A stretch of 64,000 nt of DNA from Chitinophagales bacterium (GCA_038257845.1 JBBSQL010000011.1:9152-73151), one strand, 5' to 3'; counted from the stretch's first letter, positions 11,389 to 43,343 are shown. Made by a program: numbers and translations. Notes: generated from the sequence alone by a model not told the origin.

Positions 11389-11404
11389 AGGCTTTTCATT
11401 TGAG
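11389..11404 (+). promoter_or_regulatory. Stress-box (-24/-12-type) AGGCTT-TTCAT-TTGAG
   Basis: GG-N8-TTG geometry. It starts 66 nt upstream of the ATG at 11455. Confidence 0.35.
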
Positions 11405-11454
11405 TAGTAATCTCATTGTAAATTTTTATAAAAATCTAATATAAAACTAAATCA

Positions 11455-11934
11455 ATGGCTAAGAAAAAAATCAAGAAAAATTTTTTCGAAAGTTTTTCAG
11501 CAAAAGTTACGAATGCAACTGGCAGTACACCGGCATTCATTATTGCATGTGCCCTCGTAGTTGTTTGGGCTGCAACAGGGCCCATTTTTAATTACTCGGA
11601 AACCTGGCAACTGGTGATCAATACCGGCACCACAATCATCACCTTTTTAATGGTGTTTTTAATTCAAAAATCCCAGAATAAAGATTCCATGGCCATACAA
11701 TTAAAACTCAATGAACTCGTGGCTTCCAATGATCTTTCGAGCAACCGGCTGGTATCGGTAGAAGATCTTAGTGAAGATGAGATGAAAATAATTCGTAAAT
11801 ATTATGAACGCCTGAGTGATTTAACGCAGAAAGATAATGATATGCAAGTGTCTCATTCTATTGAGGAAGCAGAAAACCGGTACAATCAAAAAAAAGCAGG
11901 GAGGGAAAAGAGATCACATCCCAGGGAAAAATAA
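11455..11934 (+). CDS. Low-affinity iron permease family protein (Fet4-like, bacterial short form)
   Basis: GSTPAFIIACALVVVWAATGPIFNYSETWQLVINTGTTIITFLMVFLIQKSQNKDSMAIQLKLNELV is the family signature. Confidence 0.8.
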   Translation: MAKKKIKKNFFESFSAKVTNATGSTPAFIIACALVVVWAATGPIFNYSETWQLVINTGTTIITFLMVFLIQKSQNKDSMAIQLKLNELVASNDLSSNRLVSVEDLSEDEMKIIRKYYERLSDLTQKDNDMQVSHSIEEAENRYNQKKAGREKRSHPREK

Positions 11935-11937
11935 TTT

Positions 11938-11953
11938 TGGTATAAAGCTTGAA
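11938..11953 (+). promoter_or_regulatory. Stress-box TGGTAT-AAAGC-TTGAA
   Basis: It starts 63 nt upstream of the ATG at 12001. Confidence 0.45.
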
Positions 11954-12000
11954 TATTTTTTATAACAGAATTAAAATTTAAAAAAATAAAACCTAAGAAA

Positions 12001-12600
12001 ATGGCAAAAGCATCGAACACAAAAAAAAGTACAAAAAAATCGGCAGAAAAAAAATCTACTGACACAAAATCAAATGGAAGAATGGGCGTGGGCGCGAATG
12101 ATTCCATGCTCCGGGATTTTTTCATTGACGAACTGAAAGACATTTACTGGGCGGAGAAGCACCTGGTGAAAACCTTACCAAAGATGATGAAAGCATCAAC
12201 CTCAGCAGAATTAAAGAGTGCATTCAAGGATCATCTTGATGTGACCAAAACGCATGTAACCCGCCTGGAACAAGTGTTTGAGGCATTAGGAAAAAAAGCA
12301 CAGGCCAAAAAATGCGAAGCCATGGAAGGCATTACCAAAGAAGGAGCATCCATTATTGAAGATACGGATGATGGCACAGCCACACGCGATGTAGGATTGA
12401 TTTTAGCAGCGCAAAAAGTAGAGCATTATGAAATTTCTACCTATGGCGGTTTGCATCAATTAGCCATTACACTTGGTCATCAGGCAGTGGCTGATTTATT
12501 GGAACAAACGCTTGGTGAGGAAAAAGATGCAGATGCCTTGCTCACTGAAATTGCAGAGAATAATGTAAATTATGAAGCTGCTGAAGAGGTAGAAGCATAA
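12001..12600 (+). CDS. DUF892 (YciE/YciF-type) ferritin-like stress protein with a Lys-rich N-terminal tail
   Basis: FIDELKDIYWAEKHLVKTLPKM...CEAMEGITKEG...AAQKVEHYEISTYG matches the YciE/YciF pattern. Confidence 0.85.
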   Translation: MAKASNTKKSTKKSAEKKSTDTKSNGRMGVGANDSMLRDFFIDELKDIYWAEKHLVKTLPKMMKASTSAELKSAFKDHLDVTKTHVTRLEQVFEALGKKAQAKKCEAMEGITKEGASIIEDTDDGTATRDVGLILAAQKVEHYEISTYGGLHQLAITLGHQAVADLLEQTLGEEKDADALLTEIAENNVNYEAAEEVEA

Positions 12601-12629
12601 ACTATAAGCCCGGCATATACTAAAAAAAA

Positions 12630-12656
12630 GGGAAATCAAATTGGTTTCCCTTTTTT
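12630..12656 (+). terminator. Rho-independent terminator
   Basis: The stem gggaaa/tttccc is followed by T6. Confidence 0.75.
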
Positions 12657-12685
12657 AAATTTTCAATTTTATTTTATAGCATGTA

Positions 12686-12701
12686 CGGCATGAAATTTGA
12701 A
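12686..12701 (+). promoter_or_regulatory. Stress-box CGGCAT-GAAAT-TTGAA
   Basis: It starts 49 nt upstream of the ATG at 12735. Confidence 0.45.
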
Positions 12702-12734
12702 TTTTATCGTATAAGTAACTAAATAAAAATTTAC

Positions 12735-13241
12735 ATGAGCAAGAAGAATTTATTTGATGAGGAAGGGATTGATAAGCTGAGAGAAATGGTGGATAAAATT
12801 GACATTTGTTTATTTTGTACATACCCGCAAACATCAGATGGCGCTACGTGTACGCCCATGAGTGCACAAGAAGTAGATGATGATGGAAATGTTTGGTTTT
12901 TCAGCGGTAAGAACAGTGATAAAAATAAAGAGATCGAAAAAGATGGTAAAGTACAATTATTTTTTTCACATCCATCCCGTAGTAGTTACCTGGTTTTGAA
13001 TGGTGAGGCTGAAATAAGTTTTGATAAAGCAAAAATTGATTATCTCTGGTCGCCACTTGTAAAAGCCTGGTTTAAAGATGGCAAAGATGACCCGAATATC
13101 TCGCTTATAAAAGTAAAAACAAATAGTGCTTATTATTGGGATGTGGAAGGCAGCCGCATGATTAATTTTTTAAAAATGGCCGCTTCAGCAGTCGTTGGCC
13201 AAAACCTGGTGGACAGTGAAGAAGGGAATATTAAAGTATAA
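12735..13241 (+). CDS. General stress protein 26-like (pyridoxamine 5'-phosphate oxidase fold)
   Basis: DDDGNVWFFSGKNSDKNKEIEKDGKVQLFFSHPSRSSYLVLNGEAE...YYWD is typical of the family. Confidence 0.8.
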   Translation: MSKKNLFDEEGIDKLREMVDKIDICLFCTYPQTSDGATCTPMSAQEVDDDGNVWFFSGKNSDKNKEIEKDGKVQLFFSHPSRSSYLVLNGEAEISFDKAKIDYLWSPLVKAWFKDGKDDPNISLIKVKTNSAYYWDVEGSRMINFLKMAASAVVGQNLVDSEEGNIKV

Positions 13242-13274
13242 CTGGTTTTATTTTTTTAAAACATATAATTTTAT

Positions 13275-13306: not shown

Positions 13307-13317
13307 AAATTCACAAA

Positions 13318-15534: not shown

Positions 15535-15550
15535 TGGTATAGCATTTGCA
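15535..15550 (+). promoter_or_regulatory. Stress-box TGGTAT-AGCAT-TTGCA (full GG-N10-GC match to sigma-54 geometry)
   Basis: It starts 35 nt upstream of the ku ATG at 15570. The ORF-track TTG start at 15546 is actually the TTG of this box. Confidence 0.5.
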
Positions 15551-15569: not shown

Positions 15570-16346
15570 ATGAAAGCAATTTGGAGCGGTTCTATTGGTT
15601 TTGGCCTTGTAAATATTCCCATAAAGATTTATAGCGCCATTGAATCAAGCGATATTGATTTGGATATGCTGGATAAAAAGGATTATTCTAATATTCGTTT
15701 TAAACGCGTGAATGAACATACAGGAAAAGAAGTTGCCTGGGAAAATATTGTGAAGGGTTATAAAATGGATGATAAATATATTGTGCTGACTGATGAAGAT
15801 TTTGAAAAAGCCAGTCCTGAAAAATCTAAGATTATAGAGATTAGTGAGTTTGTAAATGAAAAGGAAATTGATAGCATATATTATGAAACGCCATACTATA
15901 CTGCGCCTGAAAAAAATGGTGCAAAAGCGTATGGTTTATTACGTGATGCTTTAAAAAAATCCGGTAAGGCCGGGCTAGGAAGTTTTGTGTTACGCAGCAA
16001 AGAAAGCCTTTGTCTGTTGAAAGCAATGGATGATGTTATTGTATTAAACAAGATCCGGTTTGCACAGGAAATCAGGGATACAAGCGATTTGAATATTCCT
16101 GTTTCAAAAAGCAAACCCGCGGAATTGAAGATGGCCGAACAATTAATTAATCAACTGACGCATAAATTTGATATTGAAAAATATAAAGACACTTATTCGA
16201 ATGAATTGATGAAACTCATCAAAGCAAAAGCGAAAGGCAAAAAAATCTCCGCGCCAAAAATGAAAGTGGTTCATTCAACTGCGAAAGATCTGATGTCGCA
16301 ACTCAAGGCCAGCCTTGAAAATAAAACAACACGAAAAGCATCCTGA
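15570..16346 (+). CDS. ku: Ku protein (non-homologous end joining)
   Basis: [23 protein letters not shown]... is the canonical bacterial Ku N-terminus. The tail is Lys-rich. Confidence 0.95.
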
Positions 16347-16347
16347 T

Positions 16348-16938
16348 ATGGCGCTGACAAAATATAATAAAAAAAGAAATTTTAAAGAAACCAGCGAGCC
16401 TGAAGGAAAAGCAGATACGCAATCAGGTTTTCGTTTTGTTGTACAACGCCATCATGCTTCGCAATTACATTATGATTTTCGTTTAGAACTGGGCGGTGTT
16501 TTAAAAAGTTGGGCGGTGCCTAAAGGCCCATCACTTGATCCAAAAGATAAACGTCTCGCCATGATGGTGGAAGATCATCCGGTAAGTTATATCCATTTTG
16601 AAGGTGATATTCCTGAAGGAAATTATGGCGCAGGATATGTAACCGTTTGGGATAAAGGGAAATTTTTCCCTGTTGATAAAGATCATGAAAAATTAACGGA
16701 GAAGCAAGCCCTGTCAGCATTACACAAAGGTGAATTGAAGTTCTCCCTGAAAGGAAAAAAACTGAAAGGAGAGTTTGTATTGGTCCATTTAAAAAATGAT
16801 ACAAAAAATAATAATAGCTGGCTATTGATAAAACACAAAGATGAATTTTCAAAAACGCCTTACAATTCTGAAGACCTTGTGAGTGCGGCCGTAAAAAAAG
16901 TTGGCGAAAAAAAAAAAGAAAGAAAACGTAACACTTAA
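16348..16938 (+). CDS. ligD: LigD 3'-phosphoesterase (PE) domain protein
   Basis: FVVQRHHASQLHYDFRLELGGVLKSWAVPKGPSLDP is the PE-domain signature. The ORF ends 21 nt after an A11 run, with the ligase ORF open in the +1 frame. Confidence 0.9.
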   Translation: MALTKYNKKRNFKETSEPEGKADTQSGFRFVVQRHHASQLHYDFRLELGGVLKSWAVPKGPSLDPKDKRLAMMVEDHPVSYIHFEGDIPEGNYGAGYVTVWDKGKFFPVDKDHEKLTEKQALSALHKGELKFSLKGKKLKGEFVLVHLKNDTKNNNSWLLIKHKDEFSKTPYNSEDLVSAAVKKVGEKKKERKRNT

Positions 16939-18892
16939 AAAAGCAGTGAGTCTGCGTTCACCTTCTGCAAAAAAATATACAAAGTTTTACAAACCCATGC
17001 TGGCAACACTTGTAGATAAAGCATTTAATGATGCGGAATGGATCTATGAAATTAAATGGGATGGTTATCGCGCAATTACAGACTGGCAGGATGATAGGCT
17101 TAAATTATATTCACGCAACGGTTTATCATTTTCTGATAAATTTCCACAAATTGCAGAAGCACTAACATCATTAAAACATGATGCTGTATTGGATGGAGAA
17201 ATTGTTTTAATGGATAAAGAGAACAGGCCGAGTTTTCAAAAGTTGCAGCATTATGAAGAGAATAAAGAGCTGCCACTATTATATTATGTTTTCGATCTTT
17301 TATTTTTAGATAAAAAAGATATTCGCCATTTACCATTGCTCGAAAGAAAAGAATTATTAAAAAAATTATTAGAAAAAAATAATCATGGCATCATCCGTTA
17401 TTGTGACCACATAGAAGAAAAGGGTATTGCATTTTTTGCATCAGCAAAAAATGCGAACCTCGAAGGTATTATGGCAAAAAAAGCAGATAGCAATTATACT
17501 TGTAATACGCGGAGTAAAGAATGGCTGAAAATAAAAAACATCAACAGCAGGGAAGGAATCATCGTTGGGTATACAAAACCTCGAAACAGCCGGAAATACT
17601 TTGGTGCATTGGTTTTGGCACAATATGAAAATAATGAATTAATTTACATGGGCCACACAGGAACAGGCTTTGATGAAAAAACTTTAAAGGAATTATGGGA
17701 AAAAATGCAACCGCTTATTACCCAAAAATCTCCATTTAAAGAAAAAGTAAAAGTGAATATGCCGGTGACATGGATCAAACCCAAACTGGTATGTGAACTG
17801 AATTATACAGAAATGACAGAAGATGGGTTAATGCGCCACCCGGTATTCCTGGGTTTACGCTTTGATAAAAGTAAAAGTGAAGTAAACAAATCAATCGAAA
17901 TGCCTGCTCACATAAAAAAAGGAAAAAATATTATGGTGGAAAAAAAGAAAGCAAATATCAAAGCCCCGGTTGAAAAACCTGGTGCTGATGATAAAAAAGT
18001 GAAAGTGAATAATCATACACTATCACTAACAAATTTGAATAAAGTTTACTGGCCAAAGGAAAAATTCACGAAAGGTGATTTGATCAATTACTATGAAAAG
18101 ATTTCACCGTATATTTTACCTTATCTCAAAGGCAGGCCATTGTCATTGAAAAGAAATCCAAATGGAATTTTGGATGATGGATTTTTTCAAAAAGATTTTG
18201 GCGCGCAGGCCCCGGCATGGATTCCAAAAGCGAAAGTGGAATCTGACTCGAATAAAAAAATCATTGAATACATAATGTGTGAAAATAAAGCCGCATTAAT
18301 GTACATAGCGAATCTTGGTTGCATTGAAATTAATCCCTGGAATTCATTATACAAAAAAATGGATTTTCCAACATACATGATCATTGATATTGATCCATCA
18401 GATAAAAATAGTTTTGATGAAGTGATCGAAACCGCGCTTGCTGCGAAAGACTTGCTGGATGCGGCTGGAGCTGAATGCTATTGCAAAACTTCCGGTGCTA
18501 CAGGCCTGCATGTGTATGTGCCGATGGGTGGAAAATATGATTATGAGCAGGTGAAAAATTTTGGCCATTTAGTCGCGCATTTAATTTCGTTACGCGTTCC
18601 AAAATTCACCAGCCTGGAAAGGTCTTTATCAAAACGCGGTAAAAATATTTACGTGGACTTTTTACAAAACCGTCGCGGGCAAACACTTGCTTCCACGTAC
18701 AGTGTGCGGCCGCGCCCGGGCGCAACTGTTTCCACGCCACTGGAATGGAAAGAAGTGAAAAAAGGTTTACTTCCATCGCAATTCACCATTAAAAATATTT
18801 TTGACAGGTTAGAAAAGAAAGGCGATTTATTTACACCAGTTTTAAAGAAAGGAATTAATTTAAAAACATGCCTGGCAAAACTGGAAGCATGA
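16901..18892 (+). CDS. ligD: LigD ATP-dependent ligase plus polymerase/primase domains (start uncertain; probably one gene with 16348-16938)
   Basis: Ligase motif I is EIKWDGYR. The C-terminal half is the LigD polymerase domain (MIIDIDPSD, GLHVYVP). The only candidate starts are TTG at 16901 and the ATG giving MLATLV at 16997. Confidence 0.9.
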   Translation: MAKKKKKENVTLKKAVSLRSPSAKKYTKFYKPMLATLVDKAFNDAEWIYEIKWDGYRAITDWQDDRLKLYSRNGLSFSDKFPQIAEALTSLKHDAVLDGEIVLMDKENRPSFQKLQHYEENKELPLLYYVFDLLFLDKKDIRHLPLLERKELLKKLLEKNNHGIIRYCDHIEEKGIAFFASAKNANLEGIMAKKADSNYTCNTRSKEWLKIKNINSREGIIVGYTKPRNSRKYFGALVLAQYENNELIYMGHTGTGFDEKTLKELWEKMQPLITQKSPFKEKVKVNMPVTWIKPKLVCELNYTEMTEDGLMRHPVFLGLRFDKSKSEVNKSIEMPAHIKKGKNIMVEKKKANIKAPVEKPGADDKKVKVNNHTLSLTNLNKVYWPKEKFTKGDLINYYEKISPYILPYLKGRPLSLKRNPNGILDDGFFQKDFGAQAPAWIPKAKVESDSNKKIIEYIMCENKAALMYIANLGCIEINPWNSLYKKMDFPTYMIIDIDPSDKNSFDEVIETALAAKDLLDAAGAECYCKTSGATGLHVYVPMGGKYDYEQVKNFGHLVAHLISLRVPKFTSLERSLSKRGKNIYVDFLQNRRGQTLASTYSVRPRPGATVSTPLEWKEVKKGLLPSQFTIKNIFDRLEKKGDLFTPVLKKGINLKTCLAKLEA

Positions 18893-20069: not shown

Positions 20070-20258
20070 TTATTTTTTGCTATTGGAACTTTTCTTTGGG
20101 ACTTTTGCGTCTTCATTCCTGGCTTCTGATAAGCCGATCGCAATTGCCTGTTTTTTACTGGTAACTTTTTTTCCACTTCCTGTTTTCAATTTCCCCTCTT
20201 TCATTTCTTCTATATTATTTTTTACTTTTTCATGGCTCTTCTCTGAATATTTTGCCAT
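20070..20258 (-). CDS. DUF6496-family small basic protein
   Basis: EMKEGKLKTGSGKKVTSKKQAIAIGLSEAR is the family core as recalled. Confidence 0.7.
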   Translation of the reverse strand: MAKYSEKSHEKVKNNIEEMKEGKLKTGSGKKVTSKKQAIAIGLSEARNEDAKVPKKSSNSKK

Positions 20259-20299: not shown

Positions 20300-20315
20300 A
20301 ACAAATTCTTTGCCA
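20300..20315 (-). promoter_or_regulatory. Stress-box TGGCAA-AGAAT-TTGTT
   Basis: It starts 57 nt upstream of the ATG at 20258. Confidence 0.45.
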
Positions 20316-20364: not shown

Positions 20365-21825
20365 TTAAAAGGATATAATAAACAATGTCCCTTTATGAGG
20401 TGAAGATTTTACTTCAATAAAGCCTTTATGTGATTGAATGATATTCAACGCAGAAGCAAGCCCAAGGCCCATTCCATTACGTTTAGTTGTAAAATATGGT
20501 TCAAATAATTTAATAATGTTTTCATCTGAGATGCCGCAACCATTATCCTGGAAATGAATGATGTATTTGCCATCTTCTGCAAACAATTTTATGCTGAGCA
20601 GCCCGCTGTTTTCCGGCATCGCTTCCACCGCGTTTATAATGATATTTAAAAAAGCAATTTGTAATTTTTCCGGATCTCCATTCAGCCATGCATCTTCCTG
20701 CAAATAACTTTTTTTAAGTTGTATATTTTTTAATTTAATGCGGTCCATTGCATTGGCAATGGTTGATTCCAATACAGATTGCAGTGTTATTTTTTGTTGT
20801 ACAATATCAGTGGGTTTAGATGAATTCAGCAATTCGGAGATTAGGCTATTGATACGGTTACTGTTTCGTTTGATGATATCGAGAAATGATCCGGTATCTT
20901 CATTATCTATTTCTGATACAAGTTGCTCAACAGACAAATTAATATTGTTTAAAGGATTACGTACTTCATGTGCGAGCGTACGTATGAGTCGTTCGGCAGC
21001 TTTTAATTTCTCTGCCTGTAATGTTGCTTTTTCAGCATTTTTTAAAGAGGTAATATCATGCATGATACCCTGGATATAGGTTTCTTCCTGGTCATCCTTT
21101 TCGATGGTCATTGATAAAATACAGTTGATCTTTTCTTTATCCTTTCTACAAAGAATAGTTTCCATATCAGAAACTACTTTCTTCGTTTCAAGCAATTCGC
21201 GGATTTTAGTTTTTTCATCTTCATTAAGAATCAAATCATATAAACTGAGTTGCAAAAATTCTTCTTTTGAATAACCAAAAATTGTACTGGTAGCTTCGTT
21301 CACATCTTTGAAACGTACTTCATTGTCTGCAATAAATACACTGTCTTTGGAGCGTTCAAAAATGTTTCTGAATTTTTGTTCATTTACTTTTAACGCTTTT
21401 ATAAATTCAAAACGGCCGAGTGCATACCGGATACAACGTTCCAACTTTTCAGGTGTCATGTCAGATTTCACGAGGTAATCAACCGCGCCTGCTTCCATGG
21501 CAAGAATATCTATTTCCTGTGTACCAACGCCGGTTAGTAAAACCATAGGTTCTTCGCATCCATTACCGATGGCTTCGCTGATGAGATCCAGGCCCGTTTT
21601 TTCGCCGAGGCGAAAATCAACTAAATAAACATCGTGTGTTGCTTTACATATTTCATCCAGGGCATGCTTGTAATTGGAGCTCCATGAAACGCTGCAGGTA
21701 AAACCATTGGCCATATTATTGATCTGGCTACAGGTCAAAATATAATCGTCTTCATCATCATCAATCACGAGAATATTTATATCTTTTTTCAGTGCCACTT
21801 TACTGAATGTTTTAAATGTATTCAC
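20365..21825 (-). CDS. Hybrid sensor with N-terminal receiver, PAS and histidine kinase domains
   Basis: REC (ILVIDDDEDD...DVYLVDFRLG), PAS (FIADNEVRFKDVNEA), H-box (LAHEVRNPLNNI) and HATPase (GMGLGLA) are present. A GTG start overlaps the upstream stop (GTGA). Confidence 0.85.
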   Translation of the reverse strand: MNTFKTFSKVALKKDINILVIDDDEDDYILTCSQINNMANGFTCSVSWSSNYKHALDEICKATHDVYLVDFRLGEKTGLDLISEAIGNGCEEPMVLLTGVGTQEIDILAMEAGAVDYLVKSDMTPEKLERCIRYALGRFEFIKALKVNEQKFRNIFERSKDSVFIADNEVRFKDVNEATSTIFGYSKEEFLQLSLYDLILNEDEKTKIRELLETKKVVSDMETILCRKDKEKINCILSMTIEKDDQEETYIQGIMHDITSLKNAEKATLQAEKLKAAERLIRTLAHEVRNPLNNINLSVEQLVSEIDNEDTGSFLDIIKRNSNRINSLISELLNSSKPTDIVQQKITLQSVLESTIANAMDRIKLKNIQLKKSYLQEDAWLNGDPEKLQIAFLNIIINAVEAMPENSGLLSIKLFAEDGKYIIHFQDNGCGISDENIIKLFEPYFTTKRNGMGLGLASALNIIQSHKGFIEVKSSPHKGTLFIISF

Positions 21826-22263: not shown

Positions 22264-22860
22264 TTATTTCATCATGTCTTTTATTGACTTTGCTTTATCC
22301 AGGTGTTGTTGAAGTGTGGGCAAAGTGATCATAGCAAAACTTTTCAAATCACTATCCTTACCATTGTCACCTTCCTTTTTAAATAAACTTATTGCATCAT
22401 TATGATCGTCCACCATCATTTTAATATACGCTTTATCAAAATCATTCCCGGTTTTCTTTGCCAGGTCATTCACTGCATTCTGAGATTTATCACTCATGGC
22501 AGGTGGTAATGCAATATTCTTATTTGCTGCGAAAGCTTTTAATTTATCATTCGCTGCGGTATGGTCTTTAATGATCATCGCTGCATAGTCCTTCACTTTC
22601 TGACTGGACGCATTTTTATCAGCAAGCTGGCTTGCTGCAATTTCAGTCATGCCACCATTCGCAGCTTCTACCGCAAAGTCTGCATCGTCTTTATCTACCA
22701 TCATTGTGTTCATAGTAGTACTATCATTGGCTACTTTTGCCATACTATCATTCACATCCTTTGTACTGTCCACGGTATCTTCACCGGAAGTACCGCTGTT
22801 GCAGGATTGGATCGTATAAATTCCCAACAACATACTGAAAGCCAAAATTATCTTTTTCAT
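22264..22860 (-). CDS. DUF4142 lipoprotein
   Basis: Lipobox (IQSC). DADFAVEAANGGMTEIAASQLA...KDHTAANDKLKAFAA...MVDDHNDAISLF matches the DUF4142 pattern. Confidence 0.8.
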   Translation of the reverse strand: MKKIILAFSMLLGIYTIQSCNSGTSGEDTVDSTKDVNDSMAKVANDSTTMNTMMVDKDDADFAVEAANGGMTEIAASQLADKNASSQKVKDYAAMIIKDHTAANDKLKAFAANKNIALPPAMSDKSQNAVNDLAKKTGNDFDKAYIKMMVDDHNDAISLFKKEGDNGKDSDLKSFAMITLPTLQQHLDKAKSIKDMMK

Positions 22861-22903: not shown

Positions 22904-22919
22904 AACAAAGAATAAGCCA
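22904..22919 (-). promoter_or_regulatory. Stress-box TGGCTT-ATTCT-TTGTT
   Basis: It starts 59 nt upstream of the ATG at 22860. Confidence 0.4.
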
Positions 22920-23140
22920 ATTCTGCATATTCAATTCAATCATATTATACAGTACAAGAATGTGCTGTTTCTGTGCAGAAAGATTTATTGACAGCATTTT
23001 TCCCCACTTGTAGATTTGATTACCCGATTTATAAATAAAAATTCACAAAATAAAATCTTCAATACATAAAAAACTTTTGGCAGGAAATTTTCTTTGTTGT
23101 GAACTGTAAGCACATTTATTCATCAAAAACTTATTTTTTT

Positions 23141-23304: not shown

Positions 23305-23332
23305 AAAAAACTGCCGACTGGCAGTTTTTTTT
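23305..23332 (+). terminator. Rho-independent terminator
   Basis: The stem ctgcc/ggcag is followed by T8. Confidence 0.7.
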
Positions 23333-23434: not shown

Positions 23435-23932
23435 ATGGAAAAAAATTTAAACAACGACCTGGTTTTTCTAAATGAAAAAATTCATGAAATCGGCAGTGCT
23501 TTATTTTTTCCGGACAATAGGAACCACTTTCGATACCCTGCTTCCATTATAAATATTGCACGTATAGATGCAGCAGGTAATCTTTGGTTCTATGTTTACC
23601 AGCCCTGGACAAGTGAAGAAGCATTGCAAAATGGTTTCCCTGTAACAATGGATTTTTTCAGAAAAGGAAAAGACTTTTCAATCAAAGTGCAGGGCTCAGC
23701 TACTATTCACCAGGAACTGGACAAATCACTGGAAGTGCCACAATGGATGTCTTCGATTCAATCAAAGGATTATTTATTGGTATGCGTAAAAATGTGTTCC
23801 GCAGAATATTTTGATTACAATCAACAATCAACTATAAGTCTTTTTCAAAAACTGAAAGTTTCATGGCAGAATTGGATGTATTCACTGAAACCTCATTATA
23901 AGTATTTCAATTTAATACCAATAACCAGGTAA
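23435..23932 (+). CDS. Hypothetical protein, possibly with a PNPOx/GSP26-like fold
   Basis: Weak resemblance to the 12735 product (IHEIGSALFF..., AAGNLWFYV). The ORF has its own box and a tidy end. Confidence 0.4.
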   Translation: MEKNLNNDLVFLNEKIHEIGSALFFPDNRNHFRYPASIINIARIDAAGNLWFYVYQPWTSEEALQNGFPVTMDFFRKGKDFSIKVQGSATIHQELDKSLEVPQWMSSIQSKDYLLVCVKMCSAEYFDYNQQSTISLFQKLKVSWQNWMYSLKPHYKYFNLIPITR

Positions 23933-25742: not shown

Positions 25743-25758
25743 TGGCATTATTTATGCC
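25743..25758 (+). promoter_or_regulatory. Stress-box TGGCAT-TATTT-ATGCC (GG-N10-GC)
   Basis: It starts 49 nt upstream of the ATG at 25792. Confidence 0.4.
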
Positions 25759-25791: not shown

Positions 25792-25977
25792 ATGGACAAC
25801 AATGTAATACACACCGGCTCTATGAATACCGGTACAGAAAATTCACCAGGTAATTCCCATGAAATCATTTTGCAAAGACTGGAAGAAATCAATAACCGGT
25901 TAAAGAAAATTGAAGAACATTTATTCGTGCCGCTGATCAATGATGATGAGGATAAAAAAGATGCTGTTAAACCTTAG
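25792..25977 (+). CDS. Small hypothetical protein (61 aa, coiled-coil-like core)
   Basis: The ORF lies between an upstream box and a strong downstream terminator. No family recognised. Confidence 0.45.
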   Translation: MDNNVIHTGSMNTGTENSPGNSHEIILQRLEEINNRLKKIEEHLFVPLINDDEDKKDAVKP

Positions 25978-26606: not shown

Positions 26607-26786
26607 AATTTTGCATTTAAATGTATCTCTTATAAAATTCCGTGAAAAAGGTGTGTATAAAAATTTTACCCACAGTGAGAATTAAATTCTACATATTGAT
26701 TTCCCATCATCAAAAAATTTTTTTCTTTTAAATTCAGTTCCATTTATGGTATTGTTTTTTCTGTGAAATACTAAATAGATCTTTCA

Positions 26787-27116
26787 ATGAAAAAAGTTTT
26801 GATCATAGATGATGAAGAAGACCTGGGTGTAATCCTCACAAAATATTTCACCAAAAAGAAATACCTGGTATATGTCTCTTATACAATCGAGGAGGGAATG
26901 AAAATCCTGGAAACAGAACAACCCGATTATGTCTTCCTGGATAATAATTTACCGGATGGTTCCGGGTGGATTAAAGCGAATTATATACTTTCAAAATATC
27001 CCAACACACAGCTCAACCTGATTAGCGCTTATAACGTCCCCAAAACATCTGCTACATGTTTTCGCATTCTCGAAAAACCCCTGAACCTGATAGAACTCGA
27101 TAAATTATTTGAATAG
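26787..27116 (+). CDS. Stand-alone response regulator receiver
   Basis: Contains KKVLIIDDEEDL...DYVFLDNNLPDGSG. No output domain. Confidence 0.8.
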   Translation: MKKVLIIDDEEDLGVILTKYFTKKKYLVYVSYTIEEGMKILETEQPDYVFLDNNLPDGSGWIKANYILSKYPNTQLNLISAYNVPKTSATCFRILEKPLNLIELDKLFE

Positions 27117-27732: not shown

Positions 27733-27903
27733 ATGCTTAAAAAGAACCCGGAAATTTTTGCAGTTTTACTTGCCTTACCATTATTAAGCAGTTGTGATGC
27801 AATTGCAGGAATATTTAAAGCCGGCATGTGGACAGGATTTATAATCGTGGCAATCGTCATTGCAATAATCGTATGGATATTTGCAAAGATTTCAAAAAAA
27901 TAA
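27733..27903 (+). CDS. Small lipoprotein/membrane protein (56 aa, below the ORF-track cutoff)
   Basis: My own translation is MLKKNPEIFAVLLALPLLSSCDAIAGIFKAGMWTGFIIVAIVIAIIVWIFAKISKK. It has a lipobox (LLSSC) and a C-terminal TM helix. The competing minus-strand ORF 27711-27971 looks spurious. Confidence 0.55.
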   Translation: MLKKNPEIFAVLLALPLLSSCDAIAGIFKAGMWTGFIIVAIVIAIIVWIFAKISKK

Positions 27904-27912: not shown

Positions 27913-29328
27913 TTATTTTTCCTGTGCGTCTTCGAAGACTTTGATTTTATTATATAAAGTCTTGCGGTCAATCTTCAGAATTTCCGCTGCCTTCGTCTTA
28001 TTATTATTGACCTGTTTCAGCACATTCATGATCGTATTATATTCTGCACGACTGGCCGCATCTTTCAGATCCGTATTATCAAATGCATTTAGTTGTGGCA
28101 ATTGATCATAATTCGCTTCAGCAGAAATAATGGGCGTATTGGTGATTTCCCAGGGCAAGGTTTTAAGGGAAATTTTTTGTGTATCTGTCAGTAAGACTGC
28201 GCGACGTACCACATTCCTGAATTCACGCAAGTTTCCGGGCCAGGCATAATTTTCAAATGCACTCATCACTTCATCATCAAATCCTTCCACATTTTTTTCC
28301 AGTTCCTGGTTCGTCTTTTCAAGGAAAAATTTAGCGAATAAAGGAATATCAGCTTTTCTTTTTCTAAGTGGTGGAAGATTAATTGAAAATTCATTGAAGC
28401 GGTGATACAGGTCCTCCCTGAATTTTCCTTTTTTATAGGCTTCCTGTAAGTTTTCATTGGAAGCCACAATGATGCGTACATCCGTTGCCATTTCCTTATT
28501 TCCCCCAACCCTTTTAAATACTTTTTCCTGGATCACTCTCAGGAGGGAAGCCTGTATATCATAAGAAAGATTCGCTACTTCATCTAAAAATAATGTGCCT
28601 CCATTCGCAATTTCAAAATGGCCCTCTTTATCAGCCAATGCACCTGTAAATGCGCCTTTTACATGTCCGAATAATTCACTTCCTGCCAATTCCCTGGAAA
28701 GCGTACCGCAATCCATAGCAATAAATGGCATATTTTTTCTTTTACTTAAAGCATGAATTGTTTTGGCCATCACTTCCTTTCCAGTACCACTTTCGCCATA
28801 TAAAATAATGCTGTAATCTGTTGGCGCTACTATTTGTATTTGCTTATACAATTCGCGCGTTTCACCACTTTCACCTACTAAAAATTCATTATCATCATTG
28901 GGTATTTGTAAGCCTTCTTCTTTGACAGAAACCTGTGTTGGTTCTTTCATGTCCAGCTTAGATTGTAAGGCAGATTTGATAACACTCAAAACTTCATCCG
29001 GTATCAATGGTTTAGTAATGTAATCAAATGCGCCAAGTTTGATCACATCAACAGCCGTTTTTATATCAGAATAACCAGTAATGATCAGCACTTTGATACT
29101 GGCATCTATTTTTTTAATCTGAATTAAAACATCTTTCCCTTCTTTGTCGCCCAGGCGATAATCACATAAAACCAGGTCAGCTCTTTCTGATTTAATTTTC
29201 TCAATTCCCTTCGTACCGGAATAAGCAGTGTCCACCTCGTATCCATTTTTTCCCAGGAATTTTGATAATAAGGTGCACAAATCCGGGTCATCATCAATAA
29301 TTAATATTTTTCTCTGTTGTGCAGGCAT
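27913..29328 (-). CDS. Sigma-54-dependent response regulator (NtrC family enhancer-binding protein)
   Basis: REC (ILIIDDDPD...LVLCDYRLGD), AAA+ Walker A (GESGTGKE), a GAFTGA loop (VKGAFTGAL) and a C-terminal Fis-type HTH (AAEILKIDRKTLYNKI). Confidence 0.92.
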   Translation of the reverse strand: MPAQQRKILIIDDDPDLCTLLSKFLGKNGYEVDTAYSGTKGIEKIKSERADLVLCDYRLGDKEGKDVLIQIKKIDASIKVLIITGYSDIKTAVDVIKLGAFDYITKPLIPDEVLSVIKSALQSKLDMKEPTQVSVKEEGLQIPNDDNEFLVGESGETRELYKQIQIVAPTDYSIILYGESGTGKEVMAKTIHALSKRKNMPFIAMDCGTLSRELAGSELFGHVKGAFTGALADKEGHFEIANGGTLFLDEVANLSYDIQASLLRVIQEKVFKRVGGNKEMATDVRIIVASNENLQEAYKKGKFREDLYHRFNEFSINLPPLRKRKADIPLFAKFFLEKTNQELEKNVEGFDDEVMSAFENYAWPGNLREFRNVVRRAVLLTDTQKISLKTLPWEITNTPIISAEANYDQLPQLNAFDNTDLKDAASRAEYNTIMNVLKQVNNNKTKAAEILKIDRKTLYNKIKVFEDAQEK

Positions 29329-29496: not shown

Positions 29497-29512
29497 TGGC
29501 AGAATAATTGTA
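29497..29512 (+). promoter_or_regulatory. Stress-box / sigma-54-like box TGGCAG-AATAA-TTGTA
   Basis: It starts 47 nt upstream of the ATG at 29544, in the divergent region next to the EBP gene. Confidence 0.45.
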
Positions 29513-29543: not shown

Positions 29544-29912
29544 ATGAAAAATAATGATGATACAAAAGTGCTGATCGTTGATGATGAATCGGATGCCTGT
29601 TATTTACTGGAAAATATATTAAAAAGTCAAAATATAAAATCCACTTCCGCACATAACCTTTCAGAAGCCACCAAAGTACTTGCCCAAATAAAACCCACAA
29701 TTGTCTTCCTCGATAATCACCTCGAAGATGGACTGGGAATTGACTTTATACCTGAAGTAAAAAGTTTTTCACCGGATATAAAAGTGGTTATCATCACCGC
29801 GCAGGACAGTTCTGCATGGAGAATAAAAGCCATGAATAAAGGAGCAGATTCTTTTATTGGTAAGCCATTTACCAAGAACAAAATTTTCGAAACCATCCGT
29901 CAATTTATGTAA
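29544..29912 (+). CDS. Stand-alone response regulator receiver
   Basis: Contains KVLIVDDESDA...TIVFLDNHLEDG...K. No output domain. Confidence 0.8.
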   Translation: MKNNDDTKVLIVDDESDACYLLENILKSQNIKSTSAHNLSEATKVLAQIKPTIVFLDNHLEDGLGIDFIPEVKSFSPDIKVVIITAQDSSAWRIKAMNKGADSFIGKPFTKNKIFETIRQFM

Positions 29913-30115
29913 AAAAGCAATCGCGCTTTTTTATGATCAGCAAAAGTTGATGAAATTTCAGCACAACTTGTAGAAATTATTCCTCGCAAACTTCTTCCCG
30001 GCTTTTTTCCATATTTCCGTATCCGGCGACTTAAACCAATTTAATTTTTTGGCAGCATTTTTATATACTTAATTGTAGAAAAAAGACATTCATTAAAAAC
30101 TAAAAATTAAAAATT

Positions 30116-30307
30116 ATGGAACCCTGGAAATTAAAATTAAAAGGCTCATGGAATGAATTAAAAGGTAAAATGAAACAAGCTTATGCTGATCTTTCTGATG
30201 ATGACCTGAAATATGAAGAAGGAAAAGATGATGAGTTTATTGGTAAACTGCAACAGAAAACCGGTAAAACTAAAGAAGATATAAAAAATTGGATTGACAG
30301 TTTATAA
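30116..30307 (+). CDS. CsbD-family general stress protein
   Basis: [52 protein letters not shown] is the CsbD pattern. Confidence 0.85.
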
Positions 30308-36001: not shown

Positions 36002-36017
36002 TGGCAAATTTTTTGAC
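36002..36017 (+). promoter_or_regulatory. Stress-box TGGCAA-ATTTT-TTGAC upstream of grpE-dnaJ
   Basis: It starts 41 nt upstream of the grpE ATG. Its TTGGCA forms the right arm of the dyad TGCCAA-N17-TTGGCA (35978-36006). Confidence 0.45.
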
Positions 36018-36042: not shown

Positions 36043-36624
36043 ATGAATCAACATACAAAACGGCATAATGAAGATGATTTTTCAGAAGAAACGGCGGAAA
36101 ATTTTTCTCCATCTGACGAAAATGCAGCAACAGCGCAGCATTTAACAGAAGAAAATGAAGAAAAAGCATCTGCTGAAACTGAAAAATTAAAAAAAGAGCT
36201 CGAAGAACAAAAAGCAAAATACCTGCTTTTATATGCTGATTTTGACAATTATAAACGACGTACTGCCAGGGAAAGGCTTGAATTGGAACAAACAGCCGGG
36301 AAAAGAGTTATTATTCCTTTGCTTGATTTGATGGATGATTGTGACCGGGCGGAAAAATTATTGCTGGAAGGTGAAAAAAATGGCGATCAGCACCTGGAAG
36401 GTATTTTTTTAATTTTCAATAAACTTCGATCTATTCTACAGGCCCAGGGTCTGAAACCAATGGACAGCCTGCATACAGAATTTGACGTGGAAAAACATGA
36501 AGCCATTTCTCAAATACCGGCCCCATCTAAAGGTTTGGTCGGAAAAGTGGTGGATGTAATTCAGAAAGGGTACTTTTTAAATGATAAAATCATTCGATTT
36601 GCAAAAGTGGTTGTCGGAAATTAA
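36043..36624 (+). CDS. grpE: Nucleotide exchange factor GrpE
   Basis: YLLLYADFDNYKRRTARE is the GrpE signature. dnaJ follows. Confidence 0.92.
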   Translation: MNQHTKRHNEDDFSEETAENFSPSDENAATAQHLTEENEEKASAETEKLKKELEEQKAKYLLLYADFDNYKRRTARERLELEQTAGKRVIIPLLDLMDDCDRAEKLLLEGEKNGDQHLEGIFLIFNKLRSILQAQGLKPMDSLHTEFDVEKHEAISQIPAPSKGLVGKVVDVIQKGYFLNDKIIRFAKVVVGN

Positions 36625-36673
36625 ATACATCACAACCATTAAAATTAGTTTAACCGGCTAGCTCAGTTTATAT

Positions 36674-37822
36674 ATGAAAAGAGATTATTACGAAATATTA
36701 CAGGTTACAAAGACCTCGACGCCAGATGAAATTAAAAAGTCCTACCGAAAAGTGGCTATGCAGTTTCATCCTGACAGAAACCCCGGCGATGCTTCTGCTG
36801 AAGAAAAATTTAAAGAGGCTGCTGAAGCATATGAAATTTTAAGCGATCCTGATAAAAAAGCAAAATACGACCGCTTTGGACACCAGGCATTTTCCGGTCC
36901 GGGAGGACGCGGCGCCACGAATGTAAATATGGATGATATTTTCAGCCAGTTTGGAGATATTTTCGGCGATGATGTATTTGGAAGTTTTTTCGGCGGAAAC
37001 CGCGGTGGCGGAAGCAGAAGATCTTCCGGAACAAGAGGAAGTAATTTAAGGGTAAAACTTAAATTGAATTATGAAGAAATTGCTTCTGGTGTTACCAAGA
37101 CTATCAAGGTAAAGAAATATGTAAAGTGTGAAACTTGTAATGGCTCGGGCGCAAAGGATAAAAACAGTATGCAAACCTGTTCCACCTGTGGCGGAAATGG
37201 CCAGGTAAGAAAAGTGACCAATACTTTTCTGGGGCAAATGCAAACGGTTACCACCTGCCCAACCTGCAATGGAGAAGGAACGACAATTACTGCAAAATGC
37301 ACGTCCTGTAAGGGCGATGGCCGGATTTACGGGGAGGAAATGGTGAAAGTTCAAATACCTGCAGGTGTACAGGAAGGCATGCAATTAAGCATGAATGGAA
37401 AAGGAAATGCAGGAGAAAGAGGCGGTGCCGCTGGTGACCTGATCATTTTAATAGAAGAAGAACAACATAAAGAATTGCAGCGCGATGGGCAGAATGTAGC
37501 CTATGAATTATATATCAATTTCACCGACGCTGTTTTTGGGACAAACCTGGAAGTGCCTACAATTGATGGCCGGGCAAAAATTAAAGTTCCGGCAGGTACT
37601 CAAAGCGGAAAAATTTTCAGGCTGAAAGGAAAGGGTTTTCCGGATGTAAACAGCTATTCAAAAGGCGATCAACTGATCCATGTTAATGTATGGACGCCAC
37701 AAAACCTGACACGGGAGGAAAAAGACATGCTCGAACAATTGAGCAAAAGCCCTAATTTTCATCCCCAGCCTGATAAAAATGAAAAGAATTTTTTTGATAA
37801 AGTAAAAGAAGCCTTTTCTTAA
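36674..37822 (+). CDS. dnaJ: Molecular chaperone DnaJ
   Basis: J domain with HPD (FHPDRNPGD), a G/F region and four CxxCxGxG zinc motifs. Confidence 0.95.
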
Positions 37823-40585: not shown

Positions 40586-40694
40586 TTTATTCAATATTTT
40601 TTCAAACCCATAAGGGTATTCTTAAACACGGGTAAGTTATTCATTTTAGATTTTTACTGATAGCTTACCGACATTAAAAAATCAAAAAAAATAA

Positions 40695-41300
40695 ATGGCA
40701 CGTTACACAGGACCTAAAACAAAAATTTCCCGCATGTTCGGGGAACCCATCCTGGGAAACGGGAAATGGCTGACAAAAAACAGCAATCCCCCAGGTATGC
40801 ATGGCGCTACACGTAAAAGAAAAACGCTGGGCGAATATGCACTTCAATTGAAAGAAAAGCAAAAGGCTAAATACACGTATGGCGTTTTAGAAAGGCAATT
40901 CCACAACACTTTTGACAAAGCAGCAAGGCTGAAAGGCGTTACCGGTGAAAACCTGATTCGCTTATTGGAAGCACGTTTGGATAACACTGTCTTCCGTCTT
41001 GGTATTGCTCCTTCAAGGCCGGCAGCCCGCCAGCTTGTAAGCCATAAACACATTATGGTAAATGATAGCGTAGTAAATATACCTTCTTACCAGTTGAAAC
41101 CAGGTGATAAGATCAGCTTTAAAGATAAGAGTGGTAACAATGCATCATTGACTAGTTTCATCAGGAGAAAGAATAATAAATTTACCTGGCTGGACTGGAA
41201 TGATAATGAAAAGAAAGGCACATTTGTAACATTCCCGGACAGGGAAAATGTTCCTGAAAATATCCGCGAACAATTGATCGTGGAATTGTATTCTAAATAA
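40695..41300 (+). CDS. rpsD: 30S ribosomal protein S4
   Basis: Begins MARYTGPKTKISRMFG and has an S4 domain. Confidence 0.97.
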   Translation: MARYTGPKTKISRMFGEPILGNGKWLTKNSNPPGMHGATRKRKTLGEYALQLKEKQKAKYTYGVLERQFHNTFDKAARLKGVTGENLIRLLEARLDNTVFRLGIAPSRPAARQLVSHKHIMVNDSVVNIPSYQLKPGDKISFKDKSGNNASLTSFIRRKNNKFTWLDWNDNEKKGTFVTFPDRENVPENIREQLIVELYSK

Positions 41301-41365
41301 AAGATTGAAAACCATTTTCAAAATTCCCGGGTTTAAAAATCCGGAAAAAAATTAAAAATAGATAT

Positions 41366-42367
41366 ATGTCAATATTGAATTTTCAAAAACCCGACAAAAT
41401 TGTTTTACAAAAAGTAACTGATTTTGAAGGCCAGTTTGAATTCCGTCCATTAGAACCAGGATTTGGTTTGACAATCGGAAACGCGCTTAGAAGGGTTTTA
41501 TTAAGCAGCCTGGAAGGTTATGCTATCATCGGTATAAAAATTGAAGGCATTGATCATGAGTTTGCCACTTTAAAAGGTGTTACTGAAGATGTAACGGAGA
41601 TGATCCTTAACCTCAAACAAGTTCGTTTCAAAAAATTGACAGACCAGGAAATCAGTACTGAAAAAATCACATTGAATATTCAGAACAGTACTGAATTCAA
41701 TGCCGGCATGATCGGAGAAGCTACACAGCTATTCCAGGTAATGAATCCAAATCAACTGATTTGCACACTGGATACTTCTGCCAGCATTCTTATAGAAATT
41801 ACCATTGGTAAAGGCCGCGGATATGTGCCTTCAGAAGAAAATAAAATTAAAGACACTCCATTTGGCTATATCCCAATTGATTCAATTCATACACCCATCA
41901 AAAACGTAAAATATTCTATCGAAAATTATCGTGTAGAGCAAAAAACGGATTTTGAAAAATTGATCCTGGAAGTAGCAACAGACGGTACAATCAACCCGGA
42001 AGAAGCAGTAAAACAAGCTTCCCGGATTATGATCCAGCACCTTATGATCATTACGGATGAGAATATCACTTTTGATAATAAGGAAGACAAAAAAGAGGAT
42101 GTGGTAGATGAGCAGGTATTGCAATTAAGGAAAATTTTAAAGACACCATTGGAAGACCTCGATCTTTCTGTACGTGCCTTTAACTGCCTGAAAGCCGCTA
42201 AGATCAATTCATTGAGCGAACTTGTTCAGTATGAGCAGGAAGACCTTATGAAATTCCGGAATTTCGGACAAAAATCATTGAGTGAAATTGAGCAGGTGCT
42301 TGGCGAAAGAGGGTTGCATTTTGGTATGGACCTTCCGAAACTGGGTTTAACTGATCTTGATAATTAA
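41366..42367 (+). CDS. rpoA: DNA-directed RNA polymerase alpha subunit
   Basis: The N-terminal domain has GNALRRVLLSS. The C-terminal domain has LDLSVRAFNCLKAAKI. Confidence 0.97.
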   Translation: MSILNFQKPDKIVLQKVTDFEGQFEFRPLEPGFGLTIGNALRRVLLSSLEGYAIIGIKIEGIDHEFATLKGVTEDVTEMILNLKQVRFKKLTDQEISTEKITLNIQNSTEFNAGMIGEATQLFQVMNPNQLICTLDTSASILIEITIGKGRGYVPSEENKIKDTPFGYIPIDSIHTPIKNVKYSIENYRVEQKTDFEKLILEVATDGTINPEEAVKQASRIMIQHLMIITDENITFDNKEDKKEDVVDEQVLQLRKILKTPLEDLDLSVRAFNCLKAAKINSLSELVQYEQEDLMKFRNFGQKSLSEIEQVLGERGLHFGMDLPKLGLTDLDN

Positions 42368-42462
42368 TATTTTAAAAATGGGGTTGGTTTAAGACATCAA
42401 CCCCTTTACTATTCACAAAATCCTGCAATTCCTGACACGGTGCAGGGTCATAAAAAACAGTC

Positions 42463-43227
42463 ATGAGACACGGAAATAAAAACAATAACCTCGGCCGGAA
42501 AAAAGCACACAGAGTTGCACTACTAAGTAATCTTGCCAGCCAATTGATCGTTCATAAACGTATTACAACAACTTTAGCCAAAGCAAAAGTTTTACGTACT
42601 TATATAGAACCACTTATTACAAAAACCAAACATTCAGAAAGCAGCCAGGATATTATGCACCAGCACAGGGTTGTATTCAGTTACCTGCAGGATAAAGAAG
42701 CAGTAAAAGAATTATTCACTGTAGTAGGCCCGAAAATCGCCAGCCGCCCCGGTGGTTATACCCGCATCTTAAAATTAGGAATACGGGTGGGTGATAATGC
42801 TCCGAAAGCGATGATCGAATTGGTAGATTTTAATGACGTTTATACAAAAGGCACTTCAAAAACTGAAGAAGGCAAAAAAACAAGACGTGGCAGAAGCGGT
42901 ACCAAAAAAGCTGTAACCACTAAACCTGTTGCTAAAAAAGAAACGCTTGAAACAGCAACAGAATCTACAACGGATGACCTGAAAAAAATTGAAGGTATAG
43001 GCCCTAAAGCAGAAGAAGCATTACAAGCTGCAGGCATTGATTCTTATGAAAAAATGGCTGCTTCAACACCGGAAGCATTAAAAGAAATTTTAGATGCTGC
43101 CGATGGACAATTTAATGCACAGGATCCAACAAGTTGGCCCGAACAAGCCGGTCTTGCCGCAAAAGGAAACTGGGATGAATTGAAAACTTTACAGGATCAT
43201 CTCATTGCAGGCAGAGAAGCTAAATAA
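42463..43227 (+). CDS. rplQ: 50S ribosomal protein L17 with a 130-aa C-terminal extension (basic linker plus HhH-like module)
   Basis: [25 protein letters not shown]...GGYTRILK forms the L17 core, ending near aa 123. A K/T-rich linker and [21 protein letters not shown]...[17 protein letters not shown] follow. Confidence 0.9.
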
Positions 43228-43248
43228 ACATGTTTTGAAAATAAAAAT

Positions 43249-43278
43249 AAAAAGCCCGGGAAATATCCGGGTTTTTTT
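43249..43278 (+). terminator. Rho-independent terminator after rplQ
   Basis: The stem gcccgg/ccgggt is followed by T7. Confidence 0.85.
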
Positions 43279-43327
43279 GTGTTCATACATTTCATATTTT
43301 TTGACATCCTGTCATGAATATATAAAC

Positions 43328-43343
43328 TGGTATTTTTTTTGCC
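43328..43343 (+). promoter_or_regulatory. Stress-box TGGTAT-TTTTT-TTGCC (GG-N10-GC) upstream of htpG
   Basis: It starts 50 nt upstream of the htpG ATG. The palindrome TGACA-TCC-TGTCA lies just upstream (43302-43314). Confidence 0.5.

Follow-up and report, generated by a model that had tools for sequence, protein, structure and literature searches.

A sigma-54-type promoter box recurs before stress and chaperone genes in a stretch of Chitinophagaceae DNA

To our knowledge, Bacteroidota lack RpoS, sigma-B and the PhyR-EcfG system, and neither we nor the literature searched can name a master regulator of the general stress response in this phylum. Which promoter type, and which regulator, might such bacteria use for their stress genes? 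The question is raised by a 64,000-nt stretch of DNA from a Chitinophagales bacterium of soil (GCA_038257845.1 JBBSQL010000011.1:9152-73151; hereafter the window), in which, judged from its sequence, about 15 genes that encode chaperones, end-joining factors for DNA or small stress proteins have a common sigma-54-type promoter box that recurs in related genomes. A sequence-only reading of the window had listed 12 primary and 5 weaker copies of this box, and all 17 are present at the positions and on the strands collected in Table 1.

A box before stress and chaperone genes

Orthologs of an activator protein encoded in the window occur at 60-91% identity in 15 Chitinophagaceae or related metagenome-assembled genomes (MAGs; Ferruginibacter, Puia, Chitinophaga and others), and by this sequence criterion the source organism is a Chitinophagaceae bacterium. 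The gene annotations on which the regulon proposal had been built were borne out by Pfam and NCBIfam. These support DUF2383, a low-affinity Fe permease, DUF892, Pyrid_ox_like (GSP26-like), BrkB, Ku, LigD phosphoesterase, LigD ligase with Prim-Pol, TopoIB, DUF6496, a receiver-PAS histidine kinase, DUF4142, YtxH, two single receivers, CsbD, an NtrC-type activator, an lmo0937-family protein (matching NCBIfam lmo0937_fam_TM), GrpE, DnaJ and HtpG; along the ku-ligD stretch (15570-18892) the Pfam matches are Ku, LigD_N, ligase and Prim-Pol.

Over the whole window the pattern TGGYA-N6-TTG is in mild excess (13 observed vs 8.2 expected). We rejected this count as a test because it is barely significant, and only tests that take position and strand into account are informative. 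Eight of the 13 matches lie in sense orientation within the 7,856 nt of upstream regions, vs a mean of 0.14 and a maximum of 3 in 2000 shuffles, and the antisense strand of the same regions holds a single match. Other spacings (2-5 and 7-11) gave 0-1 matches each in upstream regions, so that enrichment is seen at N6 only. The distance from box to ATG is 34-67 nt in the window, with a median of 53 nt across 100 related loci, and the same fixed GG-N8-TTG spacing is found in 56 distinct DUF892 promoters and in 89 unique sites from those 100 loci.

We also scored the sequences with a matrix made only from ten promoters of the Flavobacterium psychrophilum motif SM4 that have mapped transcription start sites (TSSs), with sequences taken from Table S2 of PMC9723704. 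The sense-upstream regions of the window contain 21 matches at a threshold of 8 bits and 14 at 10 bits, and the antisense strand contains none at either. The boxes score 8.9-14.1 bits, compared with a leave-one-out range of 8.8-14.1 for the real sites, and three fall below that range (Fe permease, 6.3; lmo0937, 5.7; the receiver REC109, 6.7 bits). Over the 100 independent related loci (891 kb) the matrix finds 1.11 matches per kb in sense-upstream regions, 0.24 antisense and 0.12 in coding DNA. A matrix trained instead on DUF892 upstream regions was set aside: it yielded 110 matches of at least 9 bits vs 44.5 in shuffles, and many of these lie in coding sequence, so the motif alone cannot call single sites. 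One loose match, TGGCAGTTTTTTTT at 23319-23332 (+), was likewise rejected; a hairpin (CTGCC..GGCAG) immediately follows the lmo0937-family gene, and the match consists of its 3' arm and the T-run, so that the site is an intrinsic terminator and not a promoter.

Conservation was examined in three sets of comparison loci (L numbers): loci anchored on the activator protein, 80 metagenome loci anchored on the DUF892 protein (51-82% identity) and 7 loci anchored on Ku homologs (71-78% identity). The box is kept at the orthologous promoters of DUF892, Ku, GSP26, lmo0937/DUF5670, DUF6496, CsbD, YtxH and the receiver, as the regulon proposal had predicted. Among the DUF892 homologs with enough upstream sequence, 57 of 73 have [TCA]GGYA at a distance of 30-100 nt from the start. 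Across the 56 distinct promoters the non-anchored columns that follow TGGCA are Y (48/56) and R (51/56); then come three variable columns, W, T (46/56), T (45/56), G or T (22 and 18) and mostly A, and the consensus at related promoters reads TGGCAYR-N3-WTT(G/T)A. No column of these promoters is conserved in the 30 nt that precede the box or at +16 to +44, which excludes a two-block sigma-70-type (-35/-10) arrangement there.

For the other families, with the gene of the window included in each count, the box precedes ku in 6/8 genomes (33-41 nt from the ATG), GSP26 in 4/5 and CsbD in 4/5 (as TGGCAG in the L002, L030 and L031 homologs). It stands before all six lmo0937/DUF5670 genes compared, as TGGCA[GA], and before 6/6 DUF6496 genes, with a further case in L106. 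Most YtxH homologs are preceded by it, in the form TGGCA[GA] in seven loci (L002, L007, L014, L015, L016, L048 and L086). The receiver gene divergent from the activator has the box in 8/11 cases, including seven relatives (L002, L006, L008, L009, L011, L015 and L016), and the receiver proteins are only 43-51% identical. Retention in L002 and L014 was found for the 165-aa gene at 23435-23932 and for the single receiver gene at 26787-27116, and these two close relatives alone keep the DUF4142 box, TGGC[GT]TATT[CA]TTTG. Further genes with the box in relatives are again of stress type (DUF2383, YdaD-like SDR, KTSC, AHSA1/SRPBCC, Fpg/Nei and DUF5670). The kinases, TopoIB, BrkB and three unknown genes of the island have no box in the loci compared.

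The promoter type

The claim that the box distinguishes stress and chaperone genes from housekeeping genes held. Housekeeping genes had been said to carry TAnnTTTG instead, which is true of ndh, pckA and the gene at 38075 and not of infA, and the boxed genes lack TAnnTTTG except for an overlap at DUF892. The two elements are nearly exclusive of one another, with 12 genes having TAnnTTTG only, 21 the box only (relaxed pattern) and DUF892 alone having both. In the DUF892 promoter a sigma-A-type TAATTTTG at 11932-11941 (+) overlaps the TGG of the box, and coincidence or dual promoter use is possible. As to sigma-70-family factors themselves, the window encodes one of 292 aa (47167-48045, minus strand) with regions 1.2, 2, 3 and 4, which is most likely the organism's primary sigma factor.

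The geometry of the box had been equated with that of sigma-54 promoters, and this comparison stood: only the GG-N8-TTG spacing is enriched, and it is conserved in relatives. Both the GG-to-TTG spacing and the extended -24 element match the canonical sigma-54 promoter TGGCACG-N4-TTGCW, the Y and R columns of the DUF892 promoters corresponding to the end of TGGCAC(G). The sole departure is at -12, where TT is strong, G is found in 22/56 DUF892 promoters or 57/89 sites of the matrix-selected set, and C is rare.

This departure had led to the proposal of a divergent sigma-54 class or another sigma factor. In F. psychrophilum, where 5' ends were mapped, the sigma-54 promoter was identified with the motif SM4, mutagenesis confirmed one such promoter, and SM4 precedes groESL, lon, dnaK, grpE-dnaJ, htpG, skp and clpB (PMC9723704; Guerin et al. 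2021). The ten SM4 sequences used here read TGG[C/T/A]A[T/C]-N5-TTG[A/T]; C follows the G in 1/10, and most have TTGA or TTGT. Since TSS-mapped promoters of the phylum are likewise weak at -12, neither a divergent class nor another sigma factor is needed, and the box departs from the proteobacterial consensus and not from the validated sites of its own phylum.

We therefore read the boxes as probable sigma-54 (RpoN) -24/-12 promoters in the usual Bacteroidota form, TGGCAYR-N3-WTT(G/T)A, where the C at -12 is not conserved, and put the probability of this reading at roughly 0.7. The mapped TSS of SM4 promoters lies 12 nt after the G of TTG (PMC9723704). For the DUF892 gene a TSS is predicted near 11963, and from the box-to-ATG distances of 34-67 nt we would expect 5' untranslated regions (UTRs) of ~10-40 nt, consistent with the median 5' UTRs of 24-32 nt reported for Bacteroidota (PMC9723704).

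Several observations weigh against this assignment. The -12 GC of the canonical promoter is largely missing, G being present in ~40-65% of sites and C rarely. The motif is of low information and single sites can be chance; half of the window's matches of at least 10 bits fall in coding DNA. Conservation fails for the Fe-permease box (AGGCTT), absent from 5 homologs, and is partial for DUF2383, whose homologs are boxed in L012, L015 and L016 but mostly unboxed in a broader homolog comparison. The metagenome loci carry no taxonomy and are phylogenetically non-independent. No rpoN gene was found in the 64-kb window; in favour of the assignment, RpoN is present in 13/13 Chitinophagia genera surveyed (PMC12316311). 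Neither a comparison by eye of the receiver-activator intergenic regions nor discriminative k-mers gave a firm binding site for the activator, and several boxes are separated from the gene before them by a few nt, too little intergenic DNA to hold an enhancer.

A candidate activator, neighbouring kinases and rpoN

A sigma-54 promoter of this kind calls for an activator, and an enhancer-binding protein (EBP) with GAFTGA had been noted amid the island. Pfam (Sigma54_activat 2e-64, Response_reg and HTH_8) and sequence motifs agree on it: GHVKGAFTGA, the Walker A motif GESGTGKE and DYRLGD with the phospho-acceptor Asp identify an NtrC-class protein, which stays below every NCBIfam equivalog cut-off (NtrC, AtoC, ZraR and others). 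Its gene is flanked by boxed genes. Homologs of the receiver-PAS kinase encoded in the island, the candidate sensor of the module, adjoin the activator in six loci (L004, L006, L007, L010, L011 and L103; 59% identical in L103), and CHASE3 kinases like the one at the left edge of the island are found in the ku/activator neighbourhoods of L103 and L106. An activator homolog lies within 10 kb of ku in 3/7 ku-anchored loci (L103, L106 and L107; 49-65% identical), accompanied by single receivers and by kinases of the CHASE3 or PAS type. In five relatives (L006, L008, L009, L015 and L016) the activator gene is itself boxed, with TGGCA[AG]GATGTTT divergent from the receiver box, which suggests autoregulation; this second box is absent from the window and L002.

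It might still be that the boxes are sigma-54 promoters and share with the island activator only a neighbourhood, being driven by one or more others of the ~9-13 EBPs per genome. No EBP homolog is encoded in the DUF892-anchored loci that have long flanks, the activator gene stands beside unrelated genes in several loci (L003 and L005), and no common upstream activator site was found. Against such an arrangement, the divergent receiver keeps its box in seven relatives, the activator gene is boxed in five of them and homologous activators, kinases and receivers lie near ku in 3/7 loci, and we consider it unlikely. As for upstream words, five relatives have TGT[AG]GAAAT-like sequences at 85-100 nt before the receiver box, and the sole enriched word, TGTAGAAAT, which is of this type, is weak (8 vs 3 sequences, p=2.7e-5 over 188 tests). 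We rejected TGT[AG]GAAAT as the activator site because it is non-specific: other copies lie within genes, before rpoN and in the repeat present at 6081 and 8243.

The surroundings of rpoN in other genomes bear on which sigma-54 would read the boxes. An rpoN gene lies 0-1.5 kb upstream of ku in L105 (8539-9963), L108 (Puia; 7075-8499) and L109 (7784-9208), in the order GSP26 - omp85 - tamB <-> rpoN - (OMP beta-barrel) - ku - BrkB - DUF5670, amid genes for BrkB, DUF5670, TopoIB, LigD, MscS, DUF892 and GSP26. In L105 a gap of 37 nt separates rpoN from the ku gene downstream, which lacks its own box. The product is of 474 aa and has all three sigma-54 domains, and a homolog search with it returned close relatives only, at 70% identity or more. 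This embedding of rpoN among ku, BrkB and DUF5670 would suit a second, specialised RpoN paralog, a divergent sigma-54 class dedicated to the stress island, as would the two rpoN genes of 6/13 Chitinophagia genera (PMC12316311, Table S5) and the lower conservation of the -12 G in the stress promoters, compared with the 10 flavobacterial sites. F. psychrophilum, though, shows the same degeneracy at -12 with only one sigma-54, and one rpoN is listed for the closest named genus, Ferruginibacter (PMC12316311), yet boxed stress genes are present in a Ferruginibacter MAG locus (L007). The chaperone and stress boxes of the window are, moreover, indistinguishable by matrix score, and the high conservation of the ku-adjacent RpoN and its position beside tamB/omp85 are compatible with its being the only copy. 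A dedicated paralog is thus quite improbable.

Least probable of these alternatives is that the box is the operator of a DNA-binding regulator or part of a sigma-70-family promoter (ECF or a sigma-A variant), an idea prompted by the perfect inverted repeat at 25743, by the TAATTTTG overlap and by PM2, a stationary-phase and oxidative-stress promoter motif of Bacteroides thetaiotaomicron to which the accessible part of PMC7366714 assigns no sigma factor and which is compared here by geometry, not by sequence: the motif is asymmetric, strictly oriented to the gene at a promoter-like distance, has one fixed internal spacing with no second conserved block 15-20 nt downstream or upstream, and agrees with -24/-12 promoters that were TSS-mapped in a different class of the phylum and in one case confirmed by mutagenesis, whereas PM2 is described there with -10 and -30 elements.

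We return to the reading of the boxes as sigma-54 promoters. The box with its position and conservation, and the domain content and synteny of activator, kinases and receivers, are direct observations from which a working mechanism can be drawn. By the established sigma-54 mechanism, RNA polymerase with sigma-54 would bind the box as a closed complex, with transcription starting ~12 nt downstream of the -12 G/T, and this complex would fire only upon ATP hydrolysis by an AAA+ EBP. For the stress island that protein would most likely be the NtrC-type response regulator, phosphorylated by the neighbouring PAS and/or CHASE3 kinases when a stress signal reaches them. The two single-domain receivers, because they carry the same promoter, would provide feedback on the phosphorelay, perhaps by acting as phosphate sinks. 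The targets fall into two sets: the chaperone genes grpE-dnaJ and htpG, which are probably served by another activator, and a general-stress-like set (DUF892, GSP26, ku-ligD, DUF6496, DUF4142, lmo0937, YtxH, CsbD, DUF2383 and small unknown proteins) for which predicted sigma-54 control is new. The label general stress is suggested by gene content together with the common promoter type.

Table 1. Boxes and regulatory genes in the window, with scores from the matrix of ten SM4 promoters
Feature	Coordinates	Strand	Gene concerned	Score (bits)	Remarks
Box TGGCATATATTTTTCT	11157..11172	-	DUF2383 (10663-11127)	8.9	
Box AGGCTTTTCATTTGAG	11389..11404	+	Low-affinity Fe permease (11455-11934)	6.3	Weak, doubtful
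Box TGGTATAAAGCTTGAA	11938..11953	+	DUF892 (12001-12600)	10.8	63 nt before gene
Box CGGCATGAAATTTGAA	12686..12701	+	GSP26-like Pyrid_ox_like (12735-13241)	12.8	
Box TGGTATAGCATTTGCA	15535..15550	+	ku, then ligD genes (15570-18892)	12.3	35 nt before ku
Box TGGCAAAGAATTTGTT	20300..20315	-	DUF6496 (20070-20258)	9.7	
Box TGGCTTATTCTTTGTT	22904..22919	-	DUF4142 (22264-22860)	12.1	-24 element TGGCTT, not TGGCA
Box TGGCAGGAAATTTTCT	23078..23093	+	lmo0937/DUF5670-family membrane protein (ATG near 23141, end 23287)	5.7	
Box TGGTATAAGAATTGAA	23395..23410	+	165-aa protein (23435-23932)	10.3	
Box-like inverted repeat TGGCATTATTTATGCC	25743..25758	+	61-aa protein (25792-25977)		Ambiguous nature
Box TGGTATTGTTTTTTCT	26747..26762	+	Single receiver (26787-27116)	6.7	
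Box TGGCAGCTTATTTGAA	27593..27608	-	YtxH (27296-27541)	11.6	
Box TGGCACAATTCTTTAA	27699..27714	+	56-aa protein (27733-27903)	12.6	TGGCACAATTCTGT kept in L014
Box TGGCAGAATAATTGTA	29497..29512	+	Single receiver (29544-29912)	12.2	Divergent from activator gene
Box TGGCAGCATTTTTATA	30050..30065	+	CsbD (30116-30307)	9.9	
Box TGGCAAATTTTTTGAC	36002..36017	+	grpE-dnaJ (36043-37822)	14.1	Best score
Box TGGTATTTTTTTTGCC	43328..43343	+	htpG (43378-45288)	11.0	
NtrC-type enhancer-binding protein	27913..29328	-			Receiver (D56), AAA+ with GAFTGA, HTH_8 (Pfam)
Receiver-PAS-HisKA-HATPase histidine kinase	20365..21714	-			Candidate module sensor; Pfam; no box upstream
CHASE3 histidine kinase (9126-10535) and receiver (8643-9074)	8643..10535	-			Left edge of island; Pfam

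The site at 25743 is a palindromic GGCAT-N5-ATGCC with ATG instead of TTG at -12; the identical 16-mer occurs in one relative, L014, whose protein is 61% identical. The htpG gene and its box lie directly 3' of a ribosomal/rpoA cluster that includes the gene for ribosomal protein L17 (42463-43227, plus strand), here a protein of 254 aa with a C-terminal extension that matches the helix-hairpin-helix domain HHH_5. Elsewhere in the window, a SAM riboswitch (60986-61101, plus strand) precedes genes for a Cys/Met PLP enzyme and homoserine dehydrogenase, and a tmRNA gene (63723-64000, minus strand) is cut by the window end. Dense non-coding repeat fields flank ndh on both sides (5300-6600 and 7860-8650). 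They comprise ~14 copies of TTGTTTTGGGTTTGGGGT at a spacing of 46-53 nt, whose tail is partly conserved (..AGATCGAAATTGGAA). The heptamer CCATTAA also occurs there in runs, and a unit of 48 nt, CACAAAACGTTCCTACGGAACGATACTTCCATCATATAAYTTTTCTAC, is found at 6032, 6081 and 8243.

Known systems and the general stress response

The linking of chaperones, non-homologous end joining (NHEJ) and small stress proteins under one promoter type had been thought new for the phylum. For the chaperones this was mistaken, as the link is already published (PMC9723704, PMC12316311), and the grpE-dnaJ and htpG boxes reproduce those results; for NHEJ and the small general-stress proteins the novelty apparently stands. 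The SM4 promoters belong to the same phylum and have the same box with C rare at -12, and the orthologous grpE-dnaJ operon and htpG have TSS-mapped sigma-54 promoters in F. psychrophilum. In contrast to the window, the published SM4 regulon consists of protein quality control, envelope and gliding genes; CsbD, YtxH, DUF892, GSP26, Ku/LigD, DUF6496 and lmo0937 are absent from the published selection (PMC9723704), and no activator is assigned there, whereas the window has an NtrC-type activator, kinases and receivers among the targets. Similarly, Carrera-Reyna et al. (2025; PMC12316311) predicted sigma-54 promoters by position-specific scoring matrix (PSSM) before GroEL/ES, GrpE, DnaJ/K, IbpA, HtpG, ClpB and Lon, with chaperone and protease clusters of orthologous groups (COGs) enriched behind such promoters in Bacteroidota, but the main text is without the COGs of CsbD, YtxH, DUF892, Ku and GSP26 and offers no locus-level analysis of a Chitinophagia stress island. 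Our literature search, limited in reach and so not proof of absence, found no report of CsbD, YtxH, DUF892, GSP26, lmo0937, DUF6496 or ku-ligD as sigma-54 targets in Bacteroidota, nor of a sigma-54-controlled general stress response in this phylum.

With canonical sigma-54/NtrC systems the window shares the GG-to-TTG spacing, the extended -24 element TGGCAYR and an activator made of receiver, AAA+ domain with GAFTGA and HTH_8. It differs in that the -12 GC is reduced to TT(G/T) plus A/T, many promoters are without intergenic space upstream, no enhancer site was found in the window and the activator reaches no NCBIfam equivalog cut-off.

In gene content the island overlaps the regulons of sigma-B (Bacillus/Listeria), EcfG-PhyR (Alphaproteobacteria) and RpoS. 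CsbD, YtxH, GSP26/YdaG-like proteins, the YdaD-like SDR and lmo0937 are classic sigma-B-type members, and the Ku/LigD system of Sinorhizobium meliloti is under an EcfG-type general stress sigma factor. That Ku/LigD is stress-inducible in this species is described in the accessible part of PMC6379672. As in EcfG-PhyR, two-component sensing would feed the response. This is a resemblance in output and not in family membership: those systems use sigma-70-family factors under partner switching or proteolysis, whereas the promoter type of the window is that of sigma-54 with an ATP-dependent activator.

The extension of sigma-54 control to NHEJ and small general-stress proteins, with a conserved two-component/activator module, thus appears to be new. 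Because the candidate activator, kinases and feedback receivers adjoin the gene set, the conserved box before a classic general-stress set amounts to a concrete hypothesis for the missing stress regulator of Bacteroidota. It is possible, and we propose it tentatively at somewhat less than even odds, that in Chitinophagaceae, and perhaps in soil Bacteroidota more widely, sigma-54 and one conserved NtrC-type two-component module act as master regulator of the general stress response, in a role like that of sigma-B, EcfG or RpoS. Its reach would extend to NHEJ (ku-ligD), to ferritin-like proteins and to small stress proteins of hydrophilic or membrane type; single-domain receivers would supply feedback, and in some genera rpoN would have been recruited into the neighbourhood. 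If so, bacterial NHEJ would come under an enhancer-dependent promoter, and the flavobacterial chaperone result would be broadened to make sigma-54 the stress sigma factor of the phylum. The phylum-specific consensus TGGCAYR-N3-WTT(G/T)A should also help to annotate promoters, as matrices from Proteobacteria score against sites that lack the -12 C.

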